From NCBI GenBank assembly GCA_951406725.2, contig OX597815.1, positions 77,190,001 through 77,254,000 on the forward strand: 64,000 nucleotides of DNA. The letters run 5' to 3'. Shown piece by piece: positions 15,837 through 64,000 of the stretch. A program made the position numbers and the translations under genes. Under the pieces are notes generated by a model, which did not search any database, was not told the DNA's origin, and was given only the letters and a program-made list of their open reading frames with translations. Source of the stretch: Octopus vulgaris (Eukaryota). The stretch's first letter is position 1. Each line of letters opens with the position of its first letter.

Positions 15837-15904
<68 letters not shown>

Positions 15905-15908
<4 letters not shown>

Positions 15909-16590
15909 AACAGAAAAGAGGAATTTCGATTATCCCCACGTGGTAAGTTGTAATGTTTATAAGAAATTTAAAAAGGAAAATACGCACACTTACATAGTTT
16001 TAATATAATTTTTAATATATCGACCGGTTTCGCTATCGCTATTCATGATATTATGTTTTACTTATTTGAATATATATGTTTTGTTATGAAGAAATTTTGT
16101 CCATGTTGTGTGTGATGAAATTCACGAGTGAATGACTTCACAAGTAGATAAATAAAGGCAGGTAATTGGTTGTCGATATTGTTGTTATTGTTGTGGCTAA
16201 GGGAGATAACTGTTCAGCTTTCGGTATTGGGTGGGGATTATATATGTGTACAGACAGAGACAAGTTTCAAAAACCTTGTTTAGTAGGGGATTTATGTACA
16301 GTGATGTAATCGTGAATTGAAATATGTAAAAAGATAAAAGTTGGTTATGCGTGCATTTAAGACGTGTTTTGTATTTTTCAATGAAAAAAGTTTCTTTATT
16401 TAAACGTTCTAGTTGAGAGATTGCGTCTTTGCACTGGTAGAAAGGGAAGACTGTGAAATTTGGTTCGATGTTACCTGCACATTTTTCTATATGTTCACTG
16501 AGAGGAATTTGTCTGTATTGCGGGAAAGTGATTTGCTCTTTATGCAGAGTGATTCTCTTTCTCAAGGTCATACTTGTTTGTCCACTATAG
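15905..16590 (-). mobile_element. PLE 3' fragment: GIY-YIG C-terminus plus hammerhead (B copy ~53310-53995)
   Basis: ORF 16197-16571 preceded by GQTSM; R..LH...H...RLNKE..I; ends in (TA)n. Confidence 0.75.
16017..16051 (-). ncRNA. Minimal type I hammerhead, A3-U8 variant
   Basis: Minus strand: auauc AUGAAUA GC-gaua-GC GAAA CCGG UC gauau. Confidence 0.75.
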
Positions 16591-16604
16591 TGGTGTCCGC
16601 AACC

Positions 16605-17480
16605 CGAGCAGGAGAGAAAAAATGCGTGTAGTAGCTACCGATCTATCATGGCGACTGCCAGACAGAAGGGTCACACAGAAGAGCGAAGAAGTAGGGGAGA
16701 TAACAAAGTAAAGAGGACCCCCCAACACGAAGGTGCGTGTGTGTATAAGAGAGTATGTATGTGCATGTGAAAGAGAGCTGGTGATCTTGATGCGTGCGTG
16801 GGTGTATGTGTAGGTGTGAAAATGTGGGGATGGGAATTGGTCAGTGCTGGTGTGTGGGTGGTGTGCTGTGATGTGATGTGTAGTGTGGTATGGTGTAGTG
16901 TGGTGTGGTGTGATGTTGAGTGGTGGGGGAAACGAGAGTGGGGAAAGCACGAGTGGGGTGTGGGTTAGGCTGAATGTTGGGATATGTGGGTCGGTAGAGG
17001 GTGGGGGTAGAGGTGGGGTTTGTGTGTAGGCAGAGGGTGTGGGTAGAGGTGAGGTATGTGGGAGAGGGTGTAAGGGATGGGATGGGGAGGACAGGGAAGG
17101 TGGAGTAGGAATGTGTAGGGGTGGGGTGGGTTTATGAGGGAGAGTTGACGATGAAGGGGGAAGGAGAAGGTGGGTATGTGAGAAGAGAGAGAGAGTAAGA
17201 GAGAAGAAAGAAGAGAGAAAGAGAGTAAGAGAGAAGAGAGAAAGAGAGAATGAAAGAGTAAGAGAGAAGAGAGAAACAGAGTAAGAGAGAAAGAGAGTAA
17301 GCGAGAAGAGAGTAAATGAGAAGAAAGAAAGAGAGTACGGGTGAAGAGAAGTAAGAGTCTGAGCAAGAGAGGAGAGGTGGGTAGGAAGAAGTAGGAGGGA
17401 GGGGGAAAGAGGCAAGGGAAGAGGTTAGAGGAAGAGGGGAGGAGAGTTGAGCACAAATGGAATAAAGGAGCGAAGAGGGA
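16605..17480 (-). mobile_element. Fragment of a Neptune-like PLE 3' UTR (B copy ~54010-54940)
   Basis: The reverse complement resembles 27934-28620 (CT-rich tract, cacacca repeats, cgccatg...gctac...tttttctctcc). Confidence 0.65.
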
Positions 17481-22710: not shown

Positions 22711-23675
22711 TATTCACCAGTGAACAACTTTGGGTGGGGCCGAAAGCAGTGAGTTATAATTATTGTGCCCGGAAGAATTTGGTGCAAAGCCTATTGATAG
22801 CGTAAAGAGGGAGAAACGTTGTCGAGGAGGCAGCGTCTTCTGGAAAAACTGAGGTCTGAGAGGAAGAGTTGTCGATAGGAAAAGGAGAAAAGCTCATGAA
22901 GATACGCAGGCTAATCTTTTGGAGTTGTATGAGTTTGTGAAGAGAAAGTGCTGAAACGTCAGGTCAGAATACCTTTTTCAGATGAGGAAGCGTCGAAAGA
23001 AACAAAGAAATTTTAACAAAAATCCATTCGGTTGTACAAAGAATATTTCTGAAGTGGACGTCAAGTACCAGAAGTCATAACCGTTTCGAGCAGTTACACT
23101 TGAGACAGTTCGACCTGGTTGCCCCAAAAAAGTCTAAGCTAAGAGCATTAGACCTTTTTGTAAGAAAGCTAGGGAATGTGTACGGCAACAAAGACAAAAA
23201 ACGGGGAACATGGTAGACAATTACAAATACAAACACAAGAAAATAATAACTGGTGTCTTTCGACTGAAAACGAACCAAATTGAGCTGGCGTGCATGAAGT
23301 GAAAGCCTAAAGGCAGGAACACAGGAGATGGACATAAGAGGTGTTGGCGGTCGGCAGTCAGGCCAAGAAAGAAATATCATGGCTGGCCGAACTTCGGTCA
23401 CGTGGAAGGAAGAGAGAGGGTTAGGGGGAAGCGGGACTGAAGGATTAGAAAAAATCAAAGAGAAAGGTACAAGGGTGATAAATGAGGGGGAAATAGTGTG
23501 TGTTAAAGAGAGGAAAAAGAAATGTGTGAAAGAGAGGGGTAGCGAGAAAAAGAAAAGGGGAAGAAATTGTGAGAGGGACTAAAGAGTACGAGTCGTACAA
23601 AATTTAGATACATACCTACTATAAGGTGAAGATATATATGTGTGTGTGTGTGATGGACTCTCAAGCTCATATATA

Positions 23676-23724
<49 letters not shown>

Positions 23725-25026: not shown

Positions 25027-27933
25027 ATGCCGGATCCTAGGTCCTACCTCCTCACCCTCCATCACCGTTTGAAGGATCATCTCCGTTCTCTTCCTGTATA
25101 TTGCCTTCAGCCGTCCGTTAATCTCTCTCTACTTCTTTTTAAAAAAACCCGCTTCTCTAGCCATGTCTCTTTCCTAAGCCGCTGCCTACATCACCTACTC
25201 ATCCCTAAAGGTTTCCGCCTCCACTTCCACCCTGCTCTCCACTCGGATTCTTCCATCTTACCCATACTCCGCACCACATCTTACCGCCTTATGCGGGCCA
25301 CCATTCGCTCCAATCTCTCCAAACTACATGCCATCAACCGCCTTCTTCCTCCTGCTTTCTCCACCTTCTTCTCCTCTCTGCCGCCTCTCTATGCTCCAAA
25401 CACGCTACGCTTCATTATCCATTTGAATCAACTCTTCCATCAATTTCTTTCTGATACCAAACTTCGTAAACTCCAATCACTCTTCCATTCCACCCTACCC
25501 GACGCCACTACCCCAACTCCTCCACCACCCTTCTCCCCTCCCGATAGGCTCCATCCACCCACACCTAACCCCACTGCCCCTCCCTACAACCCCTTCTCCC
25601 CTCCCGATAGGCTCCATCCACCTACACCTAACCCTACTGCCCCGCCCAACCACCCCCCACACACCTCCCCAATCCCTCCCCCTCAGACCTCCACGAGACC
25701 TACCACCCCTCCTACTTCTATTCCACCCACCCCTTCTCCACTTCCGTCTGTTGTTACCATTCCCCCCGATCTTCCCCTCTCTGCGGCTGAACGCTCCGTC
25801 CTTGGTAGGGGTCTGCGTTTCATCCCCCTCACTCCATCCTGTAAGGAATTCCAGACGCGAGTTGATGTCCACAGCTTTGTGCGCCGTGTCCGGTTGGGTG
25901 CGCATTACCACGACTCGCCACCCACACCCAACGAAGAGGACTGCTTCACTGGCCTGGGCCGCCGACCATCCCCGTGGACGCCTGCCCCTGGCCAGATCCT
26001 AGCAGTGGATCTTTTCGCGGGCGCTTGTCAGCGTGCATTGGAGCGGTTCAACTTCTCCAGGCGCCAACGCCGCCTCAACATCTCCCCGGCTGAGCTCTTG
26101 GCTCTTCGTTCCCTCCAACGGCGCGCTGACATTATCATCAAACCGGCTGACAAGAGTGGAGCTGTAGTGGTGTGGCGCGCGGACCTCTATAGGGCCGAGG
26201 CTTTCCGCCAACTCAATGACACCTCCTTCTACTCCCCTCTGCCCTCTAACCCCACACGTAGCTACCAACAGACGGTATCCTCTACTGTCCACGACCTCAT
26301 CTCGTCCTCCCGTCTCCCCCGCACCGCATCCAACCTAATTGTGCGAACCCCACGTACCCCCACCATTTACTTCCTCCCCAAAATCCACAAACCCAACAAC
26401 CCTGGCCGCCCCATCGTCTCCGCCTGTAACTGCCCCACGGAGCTCATCTCTAAATACCTCGACCGTGTCCTTGCCCCCCTAGTGGCATCTCTTCCCTCCC
26501 ACATCCACGATACCAACCATGCTCTCCGGCTTTTCAACTCTTTCTCCTTTCCTCCCGGCTCCTCCAAAATCCTTTTTACTATGGACATCCAAAGCCTCTA
26601 TACTGTTATCCCTCACCACGAAGGACTGCAGGCCCTTCGACACTTTCTTGACCTCCGCTCTAACCCTGTACCTGACATATCCACACTCATTCGTTTGGCC
26701 GAACTTGTCCTTACTCTGAACTGCTTCTCGTTCGCGGGCGAGTTCTACCATCAGGTCTCGGGAGTGGCCATGGGAACGCGAATGGGCCCCAACTATGCGA
26801 ACCTGTTCGTTGGCTATGTTGAGGCCCAAATATTCTCTAATTTCACTGGTCCCACTCCTGAACTATATGGTCGTTACATCGACGACATTATCGGTGCCAC
26901 CTCACTCTCCCGCGAACATCTAGATTCCTTCCTCTCTTTCGTCCAATCTTTCCATCCAGCCCTCCACTTCACTTCCACTATCTCCAACACCTCTGTCTCC
27001 TTCCTCGACATTTCGGTTAGCATTCTTCACTCCACTCTTACCACCTCCATTCACTACAAACACACAGACTCACACTCATACCTAAACTTCTCTTCCTCCC
27101 ACCCCAAACACACCAAGCTTTCCATCCCCTATTCCCAATTCCTCCGTCTACGTAGGCTCTGTAGTGACGACCATGACTTTGAGACTCAGTCTCAACTCAT
27201 GGCTCGCCACTTCATCCTACGTGGATACCCCCTCACCACTATCCACACCGCCCTTGTCAGAGCACGTTCCGTAGACCGTGCATCTGCTCTCTCCCTCCGA
27301 ACCCGCCCTGTAGTCTCCCGCCTCCCTTTTCCCCTCACTTCCCACCCCACCACCCTACCTCTCCAACGCACCATTCTTCGAGCTTTCCGGCATCTCCAGT
27401 CCGACCCGTCCACTTCACACCTCTTCCCTAACCGACCCCTCCCCTCCTTCAAACGAGCCCATAACCTACGAGACCTCTTGGTCCACAGCTTCTTACCTGA
27501 CCCTACCTCCCAACCTGGCTCGTTCCTCTGCTCCCGCCCATGTTGCCGCACTTGCCCTTACCCCTCCAACACCACCCTCCTCACTGGCACCCATCATCGA
27601 CCAAATTGCATCATCGACTCCTTCACCTGCACCTCCAGCAATATCATCTATTGCATCTCCTGCTCTCTCTGCCATTCCCTGTACATCAGACAAACGGGAC
27701 GCCGCTTGGCTGACCGGTTCGTGGAACACCTCCGAGACATCCGCCTTGCCAATGACACACCGGTCTCACGCCATTTCCGCTCCACCGGTAACTCCTTGCA
27801 ACACCTATCTGTGTTCGGATTGTCCTTGCACAGAGGCCATCCGGATTCCCGCTTGCGCCGTGAACAGGGATTAATCTTCTCTCTTCGCTCTTTTACGCCA
27901 TTTGGTCTCAACTCTCCCCTCCTTTTCATCTAA
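25027..27933 (+). CDS. PLE polyprotein: reverse transcriptase, Cys-rich linker, GIY-YIG endonuclease
   Basis: KPADKSG, YFLPKIHK, GRPIVS, MDIQSLYT, GVAMG, YIDD, FLD; CSRPCCRTC; NIIYCISC...YIRQTG..RF.EH. Probable start MPDPRS at 25027 (track ORF opens at 24919). Confidence 0.93.
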   Translation: MPDPRSYLLTLHHRLKDHLRSLPVYCLQPSVNLSLLLFKKTRFSSHVSFLSRCLHHLLIPKGFRLHFHPALHSDSSILPILRTTSYRLMRATIRSNLSKLHAINRLLPPAFSTFFSSLPPLYAPNTLRFIIHLNQLFHQFLSDTKLRKLQSLFHSTLPDATTPTPPPPFSPPDRLHPPTPNPTAPPYNPFSPPDRLHPPTPNPTAPPNHPPHTSPIPPPQTSTRPTTPPTSIPPTPSPLPSVVTIPPDLPLSAAERSVLGRGLRFIPLTPSCKEFQTRVDVHSFVRRVRLGAHYHDSPPTPNEEDCFTGLGRRPSPWTPAPGQILAVDLFAGACQRALERFNFSRRQRRLNISPAELLALRSLQRRADIIIKPADKSGAVVVWRADLYRAEAFRQLNDTSFYSPLPSNPTRSYQQTVSSTVHDLISSSRLPRTASNLIVRTPRTPTIYFLPKIHKPNNPGRPIVSACNCPTELISKYLDRVLAPLVASLPSHIHDTNHALRLFNSFSFPPGSSKILFTMDIQSLYTVIPHHEGLQALRHFLDLRSNPVPDISTLIRLAELVLTLNCFSFAGEFYHQVSGVAMGTRMGPNYANLFVGYVEAQIFSNFTGPTPELYGRYIDDIIGATSLSREHLDSFLSFVQSFHPALHFTSTISNTSVSFLDISVSILHSTLTTSIHYKHTDSHSYLNFSSSHPKHTKLSIPYSQFLRLRRLCSDDHDFETQSQLMARHFILRGYPLTTIHTALVRARSVDRASALSLRTRPVVSRLPFPLTSHPTTLPLQRTILRAFRHLQSDPSTSHLFPNRPLPSFKRAHNLRDLLVHSFLPDPTSQPGSFLCSRPCCRTCPYPSNTTLLTGTHHRPNCIIDSFTCTSSNIIYCISCSLCHSLYIRQTGRRLADRFVEHLRDIRLANDTPVSRHFRSTGNSLQHLSVFGLSLHRGHPDSRLRREQGLIFSLRSFTPFGLNSPLLFI

Positions 27934-28650
27934 GCTCCCCCCCCCGACTCCTACTTCTCTTCAGTCCTTCATCTTTTCACCCCTACTCTCTTTCCCTCCT
28001 CTTCCCTTCTTTCCCTTCTTCCCTCTTCTTCTTTCTTCTTTCTTCTTCCCTCTTCCCCTTCTCTCTTCCTCTCTGCTGCCTCACTCCCCTTCTCTCCCCC
28101 TCTCCCCTCCTCTACTTCCTTCTCCTCTCCTCCTCCCCCTCCTCCCCTCTCCCCTTCATCTCCTCTCTCTCCTCCCTTCCTCCCCTCCTCTCCTCTCTCT
28201 CCTCCCCTCCTCCCCTCCTCTCTCTTCTCTCCCCCTCTCACTCTCCCCACAACCCCCACTCTACCACAACCCCCACTGTACCCCAACCCCCAGCCGAAAC
28301 CACACCCCACATGGGCTTTCCCCACTCTCGACCCCCCACCTCCCCACAACACAACATCACACCACACTACACTATACCATACGACATTACACATCACATC
28401 ATACATACATGCACACGTCCAGACCATCAGCCCTCTTTCACACGCACATACATACTCTCTTATACACACACGCACCTTCATGTTGGGGCGAAGTTCTTGA
28501 CCCTGTTATCTTCCCTACTATCCCTCTAGCGTCTAACGTCTGACCTCTGATCTCTGACTTCTGCCTGAAATCAGAACGCCATGTTGGACCGTTAGCTCCT
28601 ACACTCATTTTTTTCTCTCCTTGTTTCTCTCCGTGTTTCTTTTCTGTGTA

Positions 28651-28688
28651 TCTTTCTGTCGAAGAGCGTAGGCCCGAAACGTAAAAGA
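28651..28688 (+). ncRNA. Minimal hammerhead-like motif with CUGUCGA core in the downstream pLTR
   Basis: ucuuu CUGUCGA A GAGC-guag-GCCC GAAA CG UA aaaga. Confidence 0.5.
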
Positions 28689-28848
28689 CTTGTTTTATTT
28701 CTATTCCTGAGCGCCATACTAATACAATTGTTTCTTTATACTCCACCTGCCTTCGTCTTTTATTTATTTTCGTAAACCTTCCCGTTATATATACACATAT
28801 ATACATGCACTAGCACTATGACCCGGCAACGACGGGTCTTTAATGCTA

Positions 28849-28899
<51 letters not shown>

Positions 28900-30489
28900 C
28901 ATATATATATTTACATATATATGTGTGTGTGTATCTGCTGACATACTCTTTTTCTAACAGGGCGATGTTAGAAAAATGACTATCAATACACACTATTTAA
29001 AGCCTTGATAAAGTCTAAGAAACCGATGATCAGGAAGACTTAGAATTCTCCATATTTATCGATGAAAATGTCTGAATAAAATTATCTATTCTGTACAAGT
29101 GCTCGGTGCAGATATCAACTTGTTCTTCGTGTAGTACACTGTCTTTCATACATTGCATTCCTTCCGTTTACCGAGTCCTTAATTAGAGTTGAATTTGTAT
29201 TTCTTTTGATGTTTCAAAAGTGCTGTATTCCACTGTTTAACTGTTATCCCTTGGTCTTCTAAGCGGAGGAAGAAGGAATGTTATGCTGTTGTAGATTAAG
29301 AAATCTAGAGTGAGAAGTAAGTTTCAGAACATGCGAAAGCAAAACGGTTTCGGAAAATTTTATAGTGGTATAGATGTATGATGATATAGAAGTATGATGA
29401 GCGAGTGACATTCAGTTAACCATATCAAAAGAGCTGGATCTGTTGCTGTTGCGATAGGAACGAGCTTAGGAAGACACAATTTGATTTGTGTCCTGCTAGC
29501 TCGTTTTACGGAGGAGATACAGAGTGAAAAATGTTTAATAACAAGTGACTTTTTCTTAGATGCAGAATGAAAAATGCTTATCAGCGAGTGACTTTTTCTT
29601 AGATGCAGACCATTATATATGTGCGCAGAGAGAGTACTAGAAAGGCTATAATCTGGCTGATGCACTAAGAAGAGATTGTTTTTATGAAGAGTTATCGTCA
29701 CCGTTACCATGTCACAAAATAAAAATAAAATTATGTAATCAGATCTGTCTGATGCAAGATATATAAATTATAATACTATTCTCTTCAGCCTATGATAATA
29801 TTTTAATTATATTATCTCTATTATTAAACCCATTTTATTATAAACTAATTCTAGTTCTTACTCCAATATCGAAACAGCAAATAACAAATTATTCCTTCAA
29901 TTTCATGTTTACATTAATGTGCCAACCCAGTTTAGCCTTGTTGACAAACTAAGTGCTTATTTTCCTCGCTTCCCTAACTCAGAACATCTGTTGCACTAAC
30001 TAGCTTCAAAGATCATTTGTTTATATAATCACATAATTATGAATGTACATCTTTTATTTTGCGCTAAATAAATTTCTGTGAAAATTTGTGTTTTTCTCAA
30101 AACCATACATTTCCTACGTGGCAGACATCAAGATGTTCTGCAGACTATTTGAAGTCAATAAAGTTCACTTAAATTCCTCATGCTTAGAGTCCCCAAATTA
30201 TTAAGAATTAAGAAATTGAATGTTACATTACTTAACCATTTCTGAAAGGTTATATTCGGTTGCAGAACTGATACGACACACCAAAAACAGAGACACAATC
30301 TAATTTCTGATTTGGCCTCCTAACATGGCCTTAGTGTAATGTCTAAAATACACGTTAATGAACTAAAAGAAGGAAATATTTTCCATTCTAAATAACTCTC
30401 CAAAATACTTTTATAAATTGTGATATACATATGATATAATCGACTATACATGTAAAAGACATAAAGCACACACATTATGTCAAAGCACA

Positions 30490-30923: not shown

Positions 30924-30976
30924 GAGCTTCTACAGGACTAGAACTGTTTCATTCAAGAGAAATCTTCAGGAAGCTC
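30924..30976 (-). ncRNA. Type I hammerhead with 7-bp stem I and a complete stem III
   Basis: Minus strand: gagcuuc CUGAAGA U-UUC-ucuu-GAA-U GAAA CAG-uucuaguc-CUG UA gaagcuc. Confidence 0.8.
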
Positions 30977-30990
30977 AGGAAGCTCAGGTG

Positions 30991-31037
30991 CTTCCTGAAG
31001 ATTTCTCTTGAATGAAACAGTTCTAGTCCTGTAGAAC
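30991..31037 (+). ncRNA. Mirror-image hammerhead with stem I shortened by a 1-nt deletion
   Basis: cuuc CUGAAGA UUUCUCUUGAAU GAAA CAGUUCUAGUCCUG UA gaac. Confidence 0.65.
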
Positions 31038-53421: not shown

Positions 53422-53456
53422 ATATCGACCGGTTTCGCTATCGCTATTCATGATAT
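53422..53456 (-). ncRNA. Copy-B duplicate of the A3-U8 hammerhead
   Basis: Identical to 16017-16051. Confidence 0.75.
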
Positions 53457-62266: not shown

Positions 62267-62328
<62 letters not shown>

Positions 62329-63435
62329 CTGGAGAGTCCATCACACACACACACATATATATCTTCACCTTATAGTAGGTATGTATCTAAATTTTGTACG
62401 ACTCATACTCTTTAGTCCCTTTCACAATTTCTTCCCCTTTTCTTTTTCTCGCTACCCCTCTCTTTCACACATTTCTTTTTCCTCTCTTTAACACCAACTA
62501 TTTCCCCCTCATTTATCACCCTTGTACCTTTCTCTTTGATTTTTTTGTAATCCTTCAATCCCGCTTCCCCCTAACCCTCTCTCTTCCTTCCACGTGACCG
62601 AAGTCTGGCCAGCCATGATATTTCTTTCTTGGCCTGACTGCCGACCGCCAACACCTCTTATGTCCATCTCCTGTGTTCCTGCCTTTAGGCTTTCACTTCA
62701 TGCACGCCAGCTCAATTTGGTTCGTTTTCAGTCGAAAGATACCAGTTATTATTTTCTTGTGTTTGTATTTGTAATTGTCTACCATGTTCCCCGTGTTTTG
62801 TCTTTGTTGCCGTACATATTCCTTAGCTTTCTTACAAAAAGGTCTAATGCTCTTAGCTTAGACGTTTTTTGGAGCAACCAGGTCGAACTGTCTCAAGTGT
62901 AACTGCTCGAAACGGTTATGACTTCTGGTACTTGACTGAGGAAAGAAGGTCACGAATGACCCGTCTTCTTTTGCCTGTCCTATTTATTCTTTCTCCTGTC
63001 CGCCTTTGTATCATCTATCTGTCCCGAATGTTTTATTGTCTCCTATTGCGTTTTTGTTCCATTATACACACACACACACACACAGGTACTAGGTACTAGG
63101 CTTACAAAGAATAAGACTTGAGGTTGATTTGTTTGACTAAAGACGGTGCTCCAGCATAGCCGCTGTCAAATGACTGAAACAAGTAAAAGAATAAAAGAAT
63201 ACATCTATATCTTTTATCTTTTACTGGGTTCAGTCATAAAACTGCGGCTATGCTGGTGCACCACCTTGGAGTATTTTTGTCGAATGAATCGGCCCCAGTT
63301 TGTTTTTTAAGTTTGGTACTTATTCTATCAGTCTCTTTTGGTGAACCGCTAAGTTACAGGGATGCAAGCACACCAACACCGGTTGTTAAGCGGTGATGGG
63401 GAACAAACACAGACACAAAGACACACACACACTCA

Positions 63436-63488
<53 letters not shown>

Positions 63489-63491
<3 letters not shown>

Positions 63492-64000
63492 AAAATAGTA
63501 AAGTGTGAAAAAACGACAGAAGGCTTAAATGTTAAAAAATATATATATTTGTGTCAAAATGTCTGGAGAATATTGGAAAAATTTTTTTCCCTTTCCTTAA
63601 AATGACATAATTTTAAAATTTTTAAAGAAATTACCGGTTTCGCGTGTAGCTTTTCAAATTTCTTGTGACGTTATGTTTATATTGCATGGAATTATCGTTG
63701 TTTTTATTTCCAGGAGATTTCTAAATAAGGGGAGGTAGTGAGTGATTTTTTCCGGTGTAGGGGAGATAATCGCTTAAAAATTTTTTTTCCCATTTCCTTG
63801 TTAATTTCTCTGTGTCAGTATGTTCGGATGGTTGAGTCTGGGTTTGTACTTTTCAATGAAGAATGTTTCCTTGTTCAGTCTCATTTGTGTTGATGATCCG
63901 AAAGCACATTGGTAAAATGGGAAGATTAAAAATTGTGGCAGTAGTTGCTTTGCGCATTTCTCAATGTGCTCACTAAAAGGTATCATTCTATATTCTGGGA
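63489..64000 (-). mobile_element. PLE 3' end (GIY-YIG C-terminus plus hammerhead); runs off the window
   Basis: ORF 63801-63986 is similar to 16197-16571; ends in (TA)n. Confidence 0.8.
63625..63664 (-). ncRNA. Minimal type I hammerhead, U3-A8 variant, 7-bp stem I
   Basis: Minus strand: aagaaau UUGAAAA GC-uacac-GC GAAA CCGG UA auuucuu. Confidence 0.8.

Follow-up and report, generated by a model that had tools for sequence, protein, structure and literature searches.

Type I hammerhead ribozymes carry C3 and G8 as consensus nucleotides, and the window studied here (the whole 64,000-nt stretch of the Octopus vulgaris contig OX597815.1) raises the question of whether another pair, A3-U8, can be the settled state of a retrotransposon family, and if so what keeps it paired. 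The original prediction, drawn from this DNA alone, had placed an A3-U8 hammerhead and a U3-A8 counterpart in two kindred elements and regarded them as a natural experiment in double compensation.

An A3-U8 hammerhead and its U3-A8 counterpart

Both motifs are present as described, and the first has a further copy in the window:

16017..16051, minus strand: minimal hammerhead motif of type I in family A, with an A3-U8 core (from its sequence, its exact genomic copies and the family state)
53422..53456, minus strand: further occurrence of the A3-U8 motif (99.4% identical across 1150 nt, flanks included)
63625..63664, minus strand: minimal hammerhead motif of type I in family B, with a U3-A8 core (from its sequence and 824 genomic matches)

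Nucleotides are numbered by the standard hammerhead scheme, and the passages of the literature agree with it. In the family A motif, a 5-bp stem I (auauc and gauau) encloses A3 U4 G5 A6 A7 U8 A9, a 2-bp GC stem II and GAAA-CCGG-U-C17; N3 is at 16046 and N8 at 16041, and the predicted cut lies between 16022 (C17) and 16021. The family B motif reads aagaaau, U3 U G A A A8 A, GC stem II, GAAA-CCGG-U-A17 and auuucuu, with a stem I of 7 bp, N3 at 63657, N8 at 63652 and a cut predicted between 63632 (A17) and 63631. The 2-bp GC stem II and the ACCGGU are thus common to the two motifs and the 3-8 pair is swapped, as had been proposed. The family A motif has the type I core (U4 G5 A6 N7 N8 A9; G12 A13 A14 A15.1; U16.1 H17; three helices, with stem I open), and A3-U8 stands in the place of the consensus C3 and G8.

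The 25-nt core motif matches the window twice, against no match in 100 shuffles, and the 2.8 Gb of genome searched hold 326 exact copies of the motif and none of the reversed-pattern control. No hammerhead was returned by Rfam, either among the 150 listed of 176 window matches or in a 201-nt region. The motif at 53422-53456 represents the same insertion as that at 16017-16051 and not an independent one, for it lies within a regional duplication of about 38 kb. The duplication itself joins window positions 260-23700 and 38100-62900 at 93-99% identity, includes the family A copy, and has repeats spaced 37-41 kb apart across the window; it is either a recent segmental duplication or an uncollapsed haplotype.

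The host elements

The elements that surround the two motifs are the following:

15904..16612, minus strand: 5'-truncated Penelope-like element, family A, with the endonuclease end, 3' UTR, hammerhead and a tail to a (TA)n run
16359..16612, minus strand: fragment coding for the C-terminus of the family A GIY-YIG endonuclease (tblastn, 60% to residues 772-859 of the family B RT-EN)
63490..64000, minus strand: 3' end of a young, almost full-length family B element of about 4.3 kb, extending past the window end
63804..63998, minus strand: sequence coding for the C-terminus of the family B GIY-YIG endonuclease (100% identical to residues 805-869 of that family's ORF)

The 5' limit of the family A copy is set by the point, 16612, at which homology to other family A loci ends. 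By itself its endonuclease fragment has no Pfam match; the family B RT-EN protein matches Pfam RVT_1, and relatives match Pfam GIY-YIG. A long family B copy encodes an ORF of 869 aa, with an RT and, at its C-terminus, a GIY-YIG domain, in which a DKG motif, a CX4CxxC linker and CCHH-type residues can be recognised by eye. RT, C-terminal GIY-YIG, DKG, a CX2-5CxxC linker and CCHH are the anatomy given for Neptune and Nematis in the part of PMC8557442 available. Judged by its domain anatomy, the host is an EN+ Neptune-like Penelope element, the tree described below being made up of RTs other than the named Neptune and Nematis ones. The GIY-YIG C-termini of the two families had been called closely similar, which is apt for the extreme C-terminus (37 of 55 residues identical) and too strong for the last 260 residues, where identity is about 52%, a family-level value.

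The motifs lie 312 nt (A) and 146 nt (B) 3' of the GIY-YIG C-terminal coding sequence, and the placement of the hammerhead in family A copies, some 300 nt beyond the endonuclease end, is that of a terminal repeat region. Family A looks the older of the two, its copies being 89% identical, and the four longer family A regions fetched showed no intact ORF. That the family B element of the window is young and nearly full-length is judged from a comparison of L411 with L188, which are 98.3% identical over 4379 nt. Numerous copies are arranged as inverted pairs, as is known for Penelope-like elements; long family B copies occur in inverted and tandem arrangements, and beyond the family B element of the window lies a truncated copy in inverted orientation.

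Several observations on these elements stand apart from the ribozyme. Upstream in long family B elements there is an additional ORF, 460-495 codons in length, that overlaps the RT-EN ORF in another frame (L188:1828-3303, plus strand; also L174, L182 and L186). It is unusual for a clade described as single-ORF, and it has neither a Pfam match nor a usable match in the ESM Atlas (best 0.81). Penelope families also adjoin or nest in one another (L182, L087/L337, L068, L058), for instance where the end of a family D element is followed by a family B ribozyme.

Core states across the genome

The family patterns, which allowed any base at positions 3, 7 and 8, returned 329 matches for family A and 824 for family B. 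A3-U8 is found in 99 of the 100 family A copies listed and U3-A8 in all 100 of those listed for family B, so both cores are inherited family states and not post-insertion mutations. That the family consensus might be CUGANGA, with the cores of the window arising by chance after insertion, is refuted by these counts and by those of the whole genome, and it can be given next to no credence: C3-G8 occurs in 0 of 100 listed copies of either family and in two of the 3112 motifs described next.

These 3112 matches, against none for the control, were obtained with a family-agnostic pattern of GC stem II plus ACCGGU; the search patterns fixed U4 G5 A6 A9, G10.1-C11.1, GAAA and U16.1, and left the 3-8 pair and stem I free. 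U3-A8 accounts for 1931 of them, A3-U8 for 896, U3-G8 for 188 and G3-C8 for one, and 94 are in other states (by subtraction); C3-G8 is a rare state in this genome, and 2830 of the 3112 are Watson-Crick at 3-8, all these figures being counts of copies and not of independent events. Other stems II gave a further 3728 matches (19 for the control), among which the 100 listed belong mostly to one U3-A8 family, D. A looser canonical CUGANGA pattern gave 341 matches against 101 for the control, 358-bp tandem repeats being the commonest. The view that A3-U8 is an uncommon core therefore needs dividing: in this genome it is abundant, while in print no natural A3-U8 was found in the literature searched, which covers the most relevant hammerhead papers and supplements incompletely.

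Kinship of the families

Families A and B had been taken for sisters. The tree was built from 36 hand-picked, decayed copies out of 123 with RT-EN homology (the chimeric D/B row L087 being left out). It samples six groups, and good support attaches to each of A, B, C, D and E. Family B joins family C, which comprises C3-G8 and U3-G8 copies, at 100/99, and family A falls on the same side as families D and X, which are U3-A8, at 95/93; monophyly of A and B is rejected (p-AU 0.0009). The 3' regions of A and B are about 62% identical in a global alignment, near the 0.53-0.63 found between unrelated families, and hence stem I was replaced over a long divergence and not stepwise. Compensation of stem I between close relatives, as originally envisaged, does not describe this pair.

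The other A3-U8 family, E, is separated from A by U-A families (95/93), and a grouping of A with E is weakly rejected (p-AU 0.035); A3-U8 probably arose twice. Since the tree is unrooted, it does not give the direction of the 3-8 changes.

Closer swaps and covariation

More closely matched exchanges of the 3-8 pair exist elsewhere in the genome. In family E, A3-U8 and G3-C8 occur within near-identical flanks. By eye, the 100 listed of 313 purine-3/pyrimidine-8 matches comprise 75 A-U, 19 G-C, 5 A-C and 1 G-U, in a set that includes family A copies with altered stem II and two matches that look like chance. A3-C8, which may be a half-way state, is found in two of the family E copies fetched. 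Type I hammerheads that share the ACCGGU palindrome are also carried by 358-359 bp tandem retrozyme-like repeats (L146-L152, L345, L346), and the 358-bp repeats exist in C3-G8 and U3-A8 versions that are about 89% identical.

Twenty subfamily representatives were compared, two misplaced rows (D and X) having been dropped from the pair count. All 20 pair at 3-8 (A-U 8, U-A 5, U-G 3, C-G 2, G-C 2), and in stem I 88% of cells pair, with two-sided changes at all five pairs, against 25-42% in slid controls. Because the representatives were hand-picked to span the states, this covariation shows consistency and not frequency. Stem I also covaries between family A subfamilies.

At least four separate two-sided changes can be counted at 3-8, namely between A and its U-A neighbours, between E and B/C, between A-U and G-C within E, and between C-G and U-A in the 358-bp repeats, and no amplified family with a 3-8 mismatch was seen in any listed sample. 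Both facts, together with the stem I covariation within family A, speak against the motif being a decaying relic under little selection whose 3-8 pairing came down from a few founders. The few deep lineages (the six groups sampled), a stem II of just 2 bp and young subfamilies that tolerate U3-G8 and a shifted stem I are what such a relic would share with the data; on balance it appears improbable.

Loose constraint in young subfamilies

The young subfamilies in question are two, have U3-G8, make up 91 of the 100 listed among the 188 matches of this state, nest inside family B, and consist of copies that are 96-97% identical. In 26 of 27 fetched U3-G8 copies stem I has slipped by one base and U2.1 lacks a partner, and both features recur in 17 fetched U3-A8 copies. 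The U3-G8 subfamilies with this one-base shift at the cleavage junction (L096-L123, L181-L185) have been amplified to well over 100 copies. As they still spread, the constraint on 3-8 is not absolute. The intact family B subfamily of the window nests among shifted ones (DNA tree, 95/95), which suggests either loss and regain or recombination. In family C only 2-3 of the five stem I positions pair, and of 66 family A copies fetched, 61 retain the 1.1-2.1 pair.

A probable slow dimeric ribozyme

The reading that agrees best with these results, and one that is likely to be right, is that family A carries a minimal type I hammerhead of the Penelope kind in which A3-U8 is fixed, which folds by means of that pair and is predicted to cleave slowly as a dimer. 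The ACCGGU palindrome would join two RNAs, its computed self-duplex amounting to -8.3 kcal/mol and the computed dimer through the palindrome to -15.3 kcal/mol, against -3.6 kcal/mol per monomer. The resulting slow, dimer-forming ribozyme would process tandem element transcripts, probably helped by an element protein, and the A3-U8 pair in place of C3-G8 would likely keep the slow self-cleavage. Small Penelope-associated hammerhead variants with a short stem III reportedly do cleave as dimers, a finding ascribed to Lunse, Weinberg and Breaker.

Across the related families the 3-8 nucleotides have changed together several times, giving U-A, A-U, G-C and C-G, plus U-G. Selection on master elements may keep the 3-8 pair, of whatever identity, but only loosely; since it is loose, half-way states such as U-G and A-C, and likewise a shifted stem I, could persist until a second change occurs. 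A bolder version, for which there is some room though it is doubtful, holds that the radiation left C3-G8 and that 3-8 became a tunable rate setting of a deliberately slow, protein-gated ribozyme, with lineages that went on transposing as they passed through half-broken states (U-G, A-C, shifted stem I) back to an intact fold. If this were true, one genome would document in full, with all four Watson-Crick pairs, how the active site of a ribozyme evolves naturally by compensation.

The behaviour of a related element bears on whether cutting matters at all. In the portion of Frangieh et al. 2024 available (PMC11167929), the hammerhead of the Anolis Poseidon element is cleaved with the assistance of the element protein, which it needs; mutants of position 3 or 8 singly are dead, and the double mutant C3G/G8C is partly rescued. 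The same source reports that the dominant insertion substrate is uncut RNA, that hammerhead mutants insert normally, without effect on insertion in vitro, and that no reads end at the cut site. The fold might accordingly be maintained for a function other than catalysis, for example dimerisation of the RNA or RT-EN binding near the start of reverse transcription, with cutting incidental or absent. Family A copies extend about 60 or 125 nt past the predicted cut, to a (TA)n run, so at that copy of the hammerhead the template was uncut, and the amplification of subfamilies with a disturbed cleavage junction points the same way. Yet the Poseidon hammerhead does cut in the presence of protein, and, as far as the accessible text of PMC3884650 goes, the 3-8 pair is part of the active-site conformation, for which reason its repeated compensation fits catalysis better. 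A purely non-catalytic role is thus unlikely, and slow dimer cleavage with a fixed A3-U8 remains the favoured account of family A.

Relation to known hammerheads

Cervera and De la Pena 2014 (PMC4209133) described the minimal type I hammerheads that Penelope-like elements of metazoans carry; in the available part of that paper, multimers have low activity and the single minimal motif none. The octopus motifs resemble them in their location in a terminal repeat region after the RT-EN, a tiny palindromic helix III, the conserved G10.1-C11.1, large variable families and motif pairs on opposite strands. They depart from that consensus in that A9 directly abuts G10.1, with no extra base, that stem II has 2 bp and is not long, and that hardly any Penelope motif of this shape has C3-G8. 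The same source reports a U3-A8 covariant in Schistosoma Penelope elements, with about 1300 matches, and among the 56 representatives of its Fig. S3 there are two U3-A8, one U3-G8 (Saccoglossus) and no A3-U8 or G3-C8.

Natural covariation from C3-G8 to U3-A8 was also noted by Perreault et al. 2011 (PMC3088659), who cite Przybilski and Hammann 2007 for the activity of swapped 3-8 pairs in vitro; in the passages available, U3-A8 alone is named, from rare examples, whereas here such pairs are the fixed state of retrotransposon families of several hundred copies. The Anolis hammerhead likewise belongs to a Penelope element and has a 3' tail beyond it, but it is canonical (C3-G8) and of the Poseidon clade (PMC11167929), and the G3-C8 engineered there is natural in family E. 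As for non-LTR retrozymes (PMC7229834; bioRxiv 10.64898/2026.07.22.740005), their accessible descriptions compare with the 358-359 bp repeats, which carry type I hammerheads with ACCGGU; the A3-U8 motif itself sits in an endonuclease-coding element and not in a short tandem repeat. The portions available of PMC11014351, PMC6155905 and PMC6765202 added nothing on the 3-8 pair, and the literature searched held nothing relevant on octopus Penelope hammerheads. To the extent of these sources, natural U3-A8 and one U3-G8 were already published, and A3-U8 is apparently new in a Penelope minimal hammerhead.

A swap at 3-8 is chemically expected, which limits the surprise. The value of the material lies less in the pair formed by A and B than in a matched natural series: A-U and G-C in one family, U-A and U-G in subfamilies that are 96-97% identical, C-G and U-A in repeats that are 89% identical, and intact and shifted stems I. 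Each of these constructs comes with a copy number and an age, so that the series makes it possible to test directly if the rate of cleavage has a bearing on spread. Descriptors that demand CUGANGA miss nearly all motifs of this shape here, finding two of 3112; claims that hammerheads are absent from retroelements can thus be artefacts.

Other observations

At 25774-27900 on the plus strand the window contains a third Penelope-like RT-EN, GC-rich and distant (27% to family B), and a pattern search of 27701-28900 returned no hammerhead-like motif. A long perfect inverted repeat with arms of about 40 bp, possibly a small MITE-like element, lies at 30934-31030, and a 600-nt repeat occurs at 23123-23721 and 62273-62872 in inverted orientation, at 97-98% identity.

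The host family is present in contigs of four sequencing runs, two of them labelled as other organisms, and among the 40 listed of 191 differences in these contigs none concerns the ribozyme. Matches in at least 117 metagenome stretches were set aside as mostly chance: their 3-8 states are scattered, with one A-U, and RT-EN homology is absent from all of the stretches. One AT-rich metagenome contig (L232) has a canonical C3-G8 motif in which the palindrome recurs and stem I is 8 bp long, and this one is probably a genuine hammerhead.
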